DNA of 64,000 bases, taken from Escherichia phage AV110. The stretch lies in sequence record OR352940.1, one strand, 5' to 3'. The notes under the pieces were generated by a model, which saw nothing but the letters and a program-made list of their open reading frames with translations, ran no database searches and was not told the DNA's origin. Both the position numbers and the translations under genes were made by a program. The number at the start of each line of letters is the position of its first letter. Positions within the stretch are counted from its first letter, which is position 1. Of this stretch, positions 48,962 through 50,383 are shown piece by piece.

Positions 48962-48987
48962 AAAAAGCCCCGACCTTTCGGAAGGGC
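48962..48987 (-). terminator. intrinsic terminator-like hairpin (variant of the conserved motif)
   Basis: AAAAAGCCCCGACCTTTCGGAAGGGC on plus; 4-bp GC stem with U-tract on the minus transcript. Confidence 0.4.
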
Positions 48988-49039
48988 TAAGCCTTGCGGC
49001 AACCTTGTCGGGGTTCCACCTGCTAAGGCAAGTGTTTGT

Positions 49040-49131
49040 ACGAAACGCCGGGATTTGAACCCGGTTATTAAGCAGTTGACGCTACTCAATATTTTTAAAA
49101 GGCCATATCTCGACCATATCCGAACGTTCCG
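49040..49131 (-). ncRNA. tRNA-like element (T-arm + 7-bp acceptor stem); degenerate tRNA or small stable RNA
   Basis: Minus strand has CCGGG-TTCAAAT-CCCGG followed by acceptor strand CGTTTCG that pairs with CGGAACG 92 nt upstream; I could not fold a canonical D/anticodon arm. Confidence 0.3.
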
Positions 49132-49299
49132 TCAAAAACGCTACTCGGCTTACGGCAAAGATATTTCCTCGAATCGATAATTCGGTGCGCCGTTTCTGCT
49201 GTGATGTAAGGGGATATTAATAAATCGTAAAGATTTATTAAGACCAGTCCTTACTCAGGGAACATCAGTCCGACGACTTGCCGGTAGCGACCCGGCTTC

Positions 49300-49644
49300 T
49301 TATTTTGGCATATCATCAATTTGCTCTCGACGCCGACGCCATAGATTAATCGCTTCATAAACACATTCAGCATTTGGTATATGACGACAATAGTATAGTG
49401 ATTCGCGTTTCTGGAACCGATGTTGTAATGGAATTTCGTTTAAAAGGTCTTTACGGTCAAAGTATTCAAAACTAGTTAACCCGGAACGGTTTTTAAGAAA
49501 CTTCCAATGGCCAAATTCATTTTGGAAATAAACGTAATCGGCGTGTTGATATAACGAATTAATCAACCGGTCGGAAATAACTGTATCCTGTTCATTAAAA
49601 TAAAACGTTAAATCATGAACTACCAAATAAATATTGCCTTTCAT
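49300..49644 (-). CDS. hypothetical protein in tRNA region (start trimmed to MKGNIYLV)
   Basis: ORF between tRNA genes. Confidence 0.45.
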   Translation of the reverse strand: MKGNIYLVVHDLTFYFNEQDTVISDRLINSLYQHADYVYFQNEFGHWKFLKNRSGLTSFEYFDRKDLLNEIPLQHRFQKRESLYYCRHIPNAECVYEAINLWRRRREQIDDMPK

Positions 49645-49651
49645 ATTTTCC

Positions 49652-50185
49652 TCACAGTGGTATATCAAATTTAGTAGATTTTGAATCTAATTTTCTAATT
49701 ATAGAATTTATATCATGGAAGAAAAACCATTCGCCGTTTACATGGTCAGATTCATAAATTGAATGTAAGTATTTTTCGAGTTCAACCGCATCTTGAGAAT
49801 ATCTAAATGATAGTATTTTAAAACTTTTAAATGGAGAAAATGTATTTGCCGATAAAGCTCTTATATCAGGTTCTATACTTCTTCCTATTTTATAATAATT
49901 TGGATTTTTAGTGTCAGCCATTATATAAACAAATGCCTGACGGTGGCTTTTTTCTATATCAAACTCATCTTTAAATTTTAAGAGATTTAAAGCAGCAGTT
50001 CTACAAAACACTCGCCAAATAGCTTGTTGTTTTGCTCTTGACTTTAAAAGAAAATTTTCTTTATCCACAATTTTAAGATAGGCCACCTTTTCGATAAGTT
50101 CTTTAGTCATTTCAAAATTATAATGACCAATTAAGCCTTTTTTAATAGCCAAATTAATTTGGTCCCAATCTACATCGCTTCTCAT
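49652..50185 (-). CDS. GIY-YIG-like (T5orf172/MUG113-type) putative homing-endonuclease-like protein
   Basis: Start trimmed to MRSDVDW because the ORF-track N-terminus overlaps tRNA-Arg; motifs FVYIMADTKNPNYYKIGRS ... GEWFFF; T4 has segB in the equivalent tRNA-cluster position. Confidence 0.5.
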   Translation of the reverse strand: MRSDVDWDQINLAIKKGLIGHYNFEMTKELIEKVAYLKIVDKENFLLKSRAKQQAIWRVFCRTAALNLLKFKDEFDIEKSHRQAFVYIMADTKNPNYYKIGRSIEPDIRALSANTFSPFKSFKILSFRYSQDAVELEKYLHSIYESDHVNGEWFFFHDINSIIRKLDSKSTKFDIPL

Positions 50186-50203
50186 AGTGTTATTCTCATA
50201 AAT

Positions 50204-50280
50204 TGGCCAGTGTGGAAGGATTCTAACCTTCAACCTACGGTTTAGAGGACCGCTGCTCTGTACATTTGAGCTACACACTG
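50204..50280 (-). tRNA. tRNA-Arg (anticodon UCU), CCA encoded
   Basis: Manual cloverleaf: acceptor CAGTGTG/CACACTG, D-stem GCTC/GAGC, anticodon stem GCGGT/ACCGT with loop CCTCTAA, T-arm GAAGG-TTAGAAT-CCTTC, discriminator G, CCA. Non-canonical: C33, D-loop lacks GG and T-loop lacks C56. Confidence 0.7.
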
Positions 50281-50308
50281 TACTAACTTTTATACTATAT
50301 AAATTGTT

Positions 50309-50383
50309 TGGTGACCCTGGCTGGTTTCGATCCAGCTACCTATCAGTTATGAGCTGACAGCTCTCCCATTGAGCTACAGGGCC
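50309..50383 (-). tRNA. tRNA with anticodon CAU (Met or lysidine-modified Ile2), CCA encoded
   Basis: Manual cloverleaf: acceptor GGCCCTG/CAGGGTC (one G-U), D-arm GCTC-AATGGGA-GAGC, anticodon loop CTCATAA, T-arm GCTGG-ATCGAAA-CCAGC, discriminator A, CCA. Confidence 0.8.

Follow-up and report, generated by a model that had tools for sequence, protein, structure and literature searches.

Identity and distribution of the RNA C and RNA D orthologues

We analyzed a window of 64,000 nucleotides (nt) from Escherichia phage AV110 (OR352940.1), in which all credible genes between positions 48400 and 51000 lie on the minus strand. Comparison with phage T4 identifies this region as the distal half of a transfer RNA (tRNA) operon of the T4 type on that strand. 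In the direction of transcription it holds two tRNA genes, two open reading frames (ORFs) and a non-coding stretch of 360 nt that runs down to the next gene (ATG at 48916). An earlier sequence-only reading of the locus had offered three options for the non-coding stretch: homologues of the T4 stable RNAs, a degenerate tRNA or a convergent transcript. The first of these options is borne out by our alignments, in which the stretch matches rnaD and rnaC, as annotated in T4 and RB33, from end to end. By this homology, the stretch encodes orthologues of T4 RNA D and RNA C, placed as follows.

49303-49184, minus strand: orthologue of RNA D (T4 rnaD, species 2 RNA, T4s002), 120 nt, delimited by full-length alignment with T4
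49177-49039, minus strand: orthologue of RNA C (T4 rnaC, species 1 RNA, T4s001), 139 nt, delimited by full-length alignment with T4

The RNA C orthologue shares 136 of 139 bases with T4 rnaC in a gapless alignment. The RNA D orthologue presents about 88% identity to T4 rnaD, its 120 nt aligning to positions 1-119 of the 119-nt T4 RNA, and a spacer of 6 nt leads from RNA D to RNA C. Relative to T4, the RNA stretch forms an island of 92% identity whose flanks and neighbouring ORFs do not align. Searching 50,697 phage records with megablast and a more sensitive blastn, we found the stretch in about 800 records of T4-like phages. The records with annotation here (T4, RB33, ATK47, GiZh, RB68 and Kha5h) label the matched stretch rnaC and rnaD; most GenBank records leave this position blank or cover it with one to three spurious 'hypothetical protein' coding sequences (CDSs). 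Among Mosigviruses, the non-coding stretch of JK45 and Shf125875 is 97.6-99.5% identical to that of the window, and ATK47 presents 98.6% identity with the window across 48400-49655.

The RNA C and RNA D locus is therefore already known, as the two RNAs have been recognized in T4 since the 1970s. In T4, a Northern blot has confirmed RNAC, and RNAC and RNAD have been classed as late RNAs (PMC9697503). When we searched 48000-51000 with Rfam 15 (E ≤ 10), no family was found on RNA C or RNA D: only the two tRNAs were recovered, along with noise (isrK, ohsC, YrlA and sR34, all far under the gathering score). The tRNA, tmRNA and YrlA models all fail to match RNA C at this threshold. The sequence-only reading had proposed, as part of its refutation, that covariance models find no RNA family. 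Rfam indeed lacks a family, yet RNAC is Northern-validated in T4, so this test would have given a false negative.

The locus resembles that of T4 in the order of RNA D and then RNA C, in the strand shared with the tRNAs, in the trailer and terminator, and in the promoter block. The T4 cluster differs in having eight tRNAs and segB, with rnaD located 1 nt past tRNA-Arg, whereas the window contains two tRNAs only. Unlike T4 and RB33, the window also carries two ORFs (900 nt) between tRNA-Arg and RNA D; ATK47 carries one ORF at this position.

The two RNAs behave as modules, each of which can occur without the other. Moon, Pet-CM3-4 and AS6 carry RNA C between tRNAs and lack RNA D, and Karam- and Kanagawaviruses are likewise listed with RNA C and without RNA D. 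In Dhakavirus C6, RNA D is joined directly to the trailer without RNA C (1603-1741 of that locus). Pattern scans of IMG/VR revealed no more distant homologue of RNA C, a metagenome scan returned close relatives only, and a scan of 185,579 bacterial and archaeal genomes yielded four chance matches and no homologue of RNA C. Twelve new loci proposed by a gapped RNA C pattern were rejected as chance matches by a covariance-model search.

Covariation-based structure of the two RNAs

The fold of RNA C was derived with RNAalifold and explicit pair counting from 22 distinct homologues. These were collected from Tequatro- and Mosigviruses, Moonvirus (Moon), Karamvirus (Pet-CM3-4 and AS6), Enterobacter phages (SonariX-type and MY742) and Kanagawavirus (PEi20 and Kosakonia 305). 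Slid pairing partners and 500 shuffles served as controls. Both RNAs fold better than every shuffle (minimum free energy z = -4.2 for RNA C and -3.2 for RNA D), which, together with the many phage records that keep the stretch, agrees with its earlier description as structured. In RNA C, standard pairs occupy 98.3% of the cells of the alignment, compared with 36-44% when partners are slid. We further observed that 21 of 51 pairs have changed on both sides (3-5 with slid partners); none of the 500 shuffles reached the observed values. By this covariation, RNA C is shown to be a four-way junction with cloverleaf topology, composed of the following helices.

49176-49170 (CGAUUCG) with 49047-49041 (CGUUUCG), minus strand: closing stem of RNA C, from covariation
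49169-49100, minus strand: long arm P2 of RNA C, about 26 bp, with the loop UUGACG at 49135-49130
49091-49066, minus strand: hairpin P3 of RNA C, 10 bp, with the loop CGUCAA at 49081-49076
49064-49048, minus strand: T arm of RNA C, CCGGG-UUCAAAU-CCCGG, canonical and adjoining the closing stem

One pair of the closing stem is A-U in 12 sequences and G-C in the other 10, and it is broken in none of the 22. The stem of the T arm likewise presents changes from G-C to U-A among homologues. G-U pairs are abundant in RNA C, which makes the fold specific to the minus strand. The window copy scores 174.8 bits with our covariance model of RNA C (model R1). The copies of Kanagawaviruses score about 90 bits and were found only by covariance-model search; their fold is kept while the sequence of the arms is largely different. 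Arm lengths vary by no more than 1 nt, PEi20 and Kosakonia 305 included.

The closing stem replaces an acceptor that the sequence-only reading had drawn inside the molecule, where it joined a T arm to a 7-bp helix. Its T arm is canonical, and the internal segment CGGAACG (49131-49125) is indeed complementary to CGUUUCG. However, position 3:70 of the internal helix is unpaired in 9 of the 22 homologues with no compensation, and it is the terminal 5′ strand that covaries. We therefore rejected the internal acceptor, and with it fell the idea of a G3-U70 alanine-acceptor minihelix; the segment 49131-49125 is in fact part of the apical stem of arm P2. Separately, we note that CGGAACG pairs with CGUUUCG in 91% of cells, and this pairing may occur as an alternative conformer in the precursor.

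None of the 22 homologues departs from the hexaloop sequences UUGACG and CGUCAA, though the stems beneath these loops change. The two loops are perfect reverse complements (6 of 6 Watson-Crick pairs), a match whose probability by chance is about 2.4e-4 per loop pair. These observations suggest that the loops may form a kissing contact, be it intramolecular or between two molecules. We found no description of the fold or of the loop complementarity in the literature covered, which did not include the original papers of the 1970s-80s.

RNA C resembles a tRNA in its four-way junction, in its acceptor-like stem closed by the termini, and in its canonical UUCRAAU T loop on a 5-bp stem. It differs from a tRNA in its length of 139 nt and in lacking a D arm, a 7-nt anticodon loop and CCA. 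Its 3′ end reads ...CGUUUCG-UA, and two U-U mismatches interrupt the closing stem. The tRNA-like domain of tmRNA and the bacterial Y-RNA-like YrlA were included in the comparison with tRNA mimics. In Pet-CM3-4, ARAGORN miscalls the 3′ 96 nt of RNA C (1504-1599 of that locus) as a long tRNA-Phe. In one lineage, which includes MY742, the T loop has changed from UUCRAAU to UGCAUGC and UGGCC has become UCGCC in the internal loop before the CCU strand. These changes weakly suggest, from a single lineage, that a tRNA-like tertiary pair of the G18/U55 type has become C-G. Finally, the T-arm sequence GGTTCAAATCC (49051-49061) fits the 11-bp core of the SegB site, GGTTCRANTCC (PMC2330249), which makes rnaC itself a potential target of tRNA-directed homing nucleases.

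RNA D was analyzed from 18 distinct sequences and is composed of a 5′ hairpin (49296-49280) followed by a long irregular hairpin. Standard pairs fill 98.3% of cells, compared with 27-51% when partners are slid, and five pairs have changed on both sides. The closing pair of the 5′ hairpin is A-U, G-C or G-U depending on the sequence. The base of the long hairpin is invariant and its tip varies by lineage, with at least three alternatives; the tips of the window and of T4 differ. The hairpins noticed earlier at about 49205-49252 correspond to the apical part of this long hairpin. Whole-molecule prediction of a duplex between RNA C and RNA D gave results no better than shuffles.

Transcription, processing and possible roles

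The ends of the presumed transcript were located by comparison with T4 and by inspection of the sequence.

50473-50446, minus strand: probable MotA-dependent middle promoter, read from the sequence and from comparison with T4
49038-48960, minus strand: 3′ trailer and compound intrinsic terminator, from a terminator scan, folding and comparison with T4

The promoter candidate presents a MotA box (ATTTGCTTTA, 50473-50464), a 12-nt spacer and a -10 element (TATTAT, 50451-50446). Its assignment follows the MotA-box consensus. The block TGCTTTAAGAATTAT(T/G)TGTTATTATTAA is common to this promoter and to the DNA upstream of the T4 tRNA cluster. The predicted element overlaps the stop codon of the upstream ORF. 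The T4 late promoter motif TATAAATA was not found within the locus. At the other end, the trailer is conserved with T4 and holds a 7-bp hairpin (49034-49017). The stem of the terminator is formed by 49013-49007 with 48974-48968 and is followed by CUUUUUGG; a pattern scan for terminators reported a minus-strand site at 48983-48968.

Transcription of the T4 tRNA cluster starts at a middle promoter directly upstream of it, and the precursor of about 1.75 kb ends after the species I RNA gene and yields the tRNAs together with the species I and II RNAs (PMC2330249). By analogy, a single transcript from the MotA-type promoter would run through the two tRNAs, the two ORFs, RNA D and RNA C and would stop at about 48968. 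By the same analogy with T4 (PMC2330249), the tRNAs and both stable RNAs would be released from it by host nucleases of tRNA processing, and the two ORFs would be translated from the same precursor. The acceptor/T-arm half of RNA C would let this RNA mature and be stabilized like a tRNA. Its invariant loops would either lock a compact shape or pair two molecules and in this way engage a tRNA-binding factor of the host or of the phage.

The best overall explanation of the locus combines this operon, the identity of RNA C and RNA D, their fold and processing, a mimic role for RNA C and a mobile ORF, and we hold it with high confidence as a whole. The mimic role taken separately is far more tentative: RNA C could possibly act as a non-chargeable tRNA mimic whose loops produce the compact shape or dimer that engages the factor. 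A more specific version, in which the hexaloop kiss builds a rigid, tRNA-shaped decoy or adaptor that captures a host tRNA-directed factor (for instance a defence nuclease aimed at tRNAs, or an enzyme of modification or processing), with RNA D as a partner relevant to host range, seems unlikely to us. When a T4-like phage was adapted to the host ECOR34, the same single-nucleotide polymorphism (SNP) in rnaD arose in all lines (PMC12685909), and this convergence hints at a host-specific role for RNA C and RNA D.

Several points weigh against this explanation. The mimic role of RNA C is one that we only infer, and the function of both RNAs is still called unknown in the literature (PMC3014915, PMC9697503, PMC12685909). 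Their expression has been shown in T4 only (PMC9697503). Neither ARAGORN nor the Rfam tRNA model (E ≤ 10) reports a tRNA on 49039-49177. The kissing contact is beyond the reach of covariation because neither hexaloop varies, and its intramolecular form would need a sharp fold-back of the long arm. In addition, RNA D is separated from tRNA-Arg by the two ORFs, so its 5′ end must be made differently than in T4.

The two RNAs might instead be cis-acting modules of processing and stability, which would guide the entry of RNase P or RNase E and protect the upstream tRNAs and mRNAs from 3′ exonucleases, the stable RNAs being by-products. Their location next to the terminator, at the 3′ end of the operon, is consistent with such a role, as are the acceptor/T-arm module of RNA C and the processing of the T4 RNAs from the same precursor as the tRNAs (PMC2330249). 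However, RNA C of Moon, Pet-CM3-4 and AS6 is flanked by tRNAs on either side, in the middle of the array, and is thus not a 3′ cap. Moreover, the stems drift between genera, but the hexaloops and a number of single-stranded blocks do not vary, suggesting sequence-specific recognition, and RNA C has been seen as a discrete species in T4 (PMC9697503). We consider the cis-acting role improbable.

The other readings of the stretch fared worse. A non-functional remnant of one or more decayed tRNA genes would account for the canonical T arm with a complementary 7-mer nearby and for the tRNA-Phe call on the 3′ 96 nt of the Pet-CM3-4 copy, and RNA C may well descend from a tRNA. Decay is nevertheless very hard to reconcile with an identity of 136/139 to T4 between non-homologous flanks, with helices that are all maintained by compensatory changes among the 22 homologues, with the lack of any match to the Rfam tRNA model even at E ≤ 10, and with Northern-validated expression of RNAC in T4 (PMC9697503). 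RNA C is a complete and conserved RNA of 139 nt rather than a degenerate tRNA. Equally hard to credit is a convergent plus-strand transcript ending at 49280-49303, or a set of small protein-coding ORFs. A pattern scan did recover the hairpin and T tract on the plus strand (49280-49296), short ORFs exist on both strands, and many genomes carry 'hypothetical protein' CDSs here. However, this hairpin is the reverse complement of the 5′ hairpin of RNA D. Three observations argue against its reading as a terminator: where the closing pair is G-U, the plus strand would have a C-A mismatch, no plus-strand gene runs into it, and the sequence is homologous to rnaD. The credible genes and the RNAs are all on the minus strand, and RNA C contains many G-U pairs that only this strand can form. 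Finally, the variation tracks base-pairing and not codon positions, and the ORFs reach just 33-44 amino acids (aa).

As a genome feature, the locus is routine: the tail of a T4 tRNA operon in a Mosigvirus-like phage. Its remaining value lies in the function of RNA C and RNA D, still unsolved about 50 years after they became known, and in the testable structure that the comparative model offers. The points open to experiment are the true closing stem, the cloverleaf topology, the constant arm lengths, the complementary invariant loops and the modular distribution of the two RNAs.

The tRNAs and the reading frames upstream of RNA D

Upstream of RNA D, the operon contains the following genes.

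50383-50309, minus strand: tRNA-"Met"(CAU) with encoded CCA, from ARAGORN and Rfam (tRNA, 59.4 bits)
50280-50204, minus strand: tRNA-Arg(UCU) with encoded CCA, reading AGA, from ARAGORN (TCT) and Rfam (tRNA, 62.1 bits)
50185-49652, minus strand: ORF of 177 aa of the T5orf172/MUG113 type (GIY-YIG-like), from Pfam and PHROG
49644-49300, minus strand: ORF of 114 aa similar to RB69ORF150c, from phrog_3355 and alignment with ATK47

ARAGORN and Rfam agree with the sequence-only reading on the two CCA-encoding tRNAs (the gathering score of the Rfam tRNA family, RF00005, is 29). The CAU tRNA aligns with the gene annotated as tRNA-Ile in T4, with the same acceptor stem and D arm. It carries G1-C72, C4-G69 and C5-G68, which we take to be determinants of TilS. 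It is therefore probably, on sequence grounds, a lysidine-modified reader of AUA of the tRNA-Ile2 type rather than a Met tRNA. The anticodon stem of tRNA-Arg resembles the allele of teqskov and its T arm is common to ATK47; its acceptor stem is unique, yet fully compensated. Of the Arg codons in the ORFs of the window, 14% are AGA, and of the Ile codons 12% are AUA. Based on the anticodons and these codon counts, decoding of AUA is very likely supplied by the CAU tRNA, and decoding of AGA is probably supplied by tRNA-Arg(UCU).

The sequence-only reading had also noticed the two ORFs and had recognized T5orf172/MUG113 motifs in one of them. Pfam confirms this above its cut-offs (MUG113, 35.7 bits against 22.3; T5orf172, 30.6 bits against 20), and the ORF matches phrog_5032 (E = 7.5e-56); no sequence match was found in PDB or in NCBIfam. 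Relative to ATK47, the window presents an insertion of 559 bp (49656-50214) in place of 18 bp, with flanks of 98.6% and 91.7% identity. The right edge of this insertion is the shared sequence GTGAGGAAAATATG, which contains the ribosome-binding site and start codon of the ORF150c-like gene. This alignment shows that the 177-aa ORF is an insertion relative to ATK47. The module composed of the ORF and tRNA-Arg is 80% identical to a module of the Tequatrovirus teqskov, where it is located directly between tRNA-Arg and RNA D. The exact arrangement of the window, with the inserted ORF, is found in ECO111 5-P and ESh27 (96% and 90% of a 1.5-kb query, at about 97% identity).

Using tblastn, we identified homologues of the 177-aa ORF in 243 phage records. 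All six homologues examined, from T4-like and T5-like phages (KpV477, Muldoon, My1, Gostya9, JLBYU40 and 44RR2.8t), lie inside tRNA clusters, and several adjoin tRNA-Arg. In KpV477, My1, JLBYU40 and 44RR2.8t, the last 10-33 nt of the ORF lie inside the next tRNA gene, and the C-terminus is therefore encoded by tRNA sequence. The residues Y87, K99, G101, R109, E137, H141, E152 and W153 are invariant among seven homologues of 23-78% identity, and the 177-aa ORF contains the motif (V)Y(I) ... YKIG ... R ... E. Presumably, these residues correspond to the pattern GIY...YIG...R...E expected of an active nuclease of the GIY-YIG type. These results suggest that the ORF is a putative free-standing homing endonuclease, whose activity and homing we infer; a reservation is that the nuclease role of this T5orf172 subfamily is itself putative.

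The sequence-only reading had likened this ORF to segB of T4. The parallel holds in that the ORF is a real insertion in the tRNA region. As with SegB, which is a GIY-YIG homing endonuclease (PMC2330249), a free-standing ORF of a nuclease family lies in the tRNA cluster and is missing from close relatives, and alleles that carry the ORF differ from those that lack it in the adjoining tRNA sequence. In contrast to SegB, the ORF belongs to the Pfam family T5orf172/MUG113 and is inserted after tRNA-Arg, whereas SegB lies before it. We detected no similarity between the ORF and T4 SegB (BLASTP E = 0.55 over 13 residues), and the parallel is thus functional and positional and does not extend to family membership. 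The ORF may be a mobile GIY-YIG-like gene specialized in phage tRNA clusters, which would probably spread, as SegB does, by cutting the tRNA-region DNA of relatives that lack it. The presence of this T5orf172 subfamily almost exclusively beside the tRNA genes of T4-like and T5-like phages suggests a second family of homing nucleases targeting tRNA clusters besides SegB.

The second ORF matches phrog_3355 (E = 2.4e-50, residues 9-121 of a longer version of the ORF). Alignment with ATK47, where the CDS counts 345 nt, indicates that its real start is the ATG at 49644 (MKGNI...) rather than a TTG further upstream, at 49668. At its other end the gene reads ...ATG CCA AAA TAA (49300-49315), with the stop codon directly adjoining the 5′ end of RNA D. 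As the only remnant ahead of RNA D, it thereby keeps the CCAAA that is found after tRNA-Arg in T4 and RB33, so that this ORF was apparently inserted precisely where the tRNA ends.

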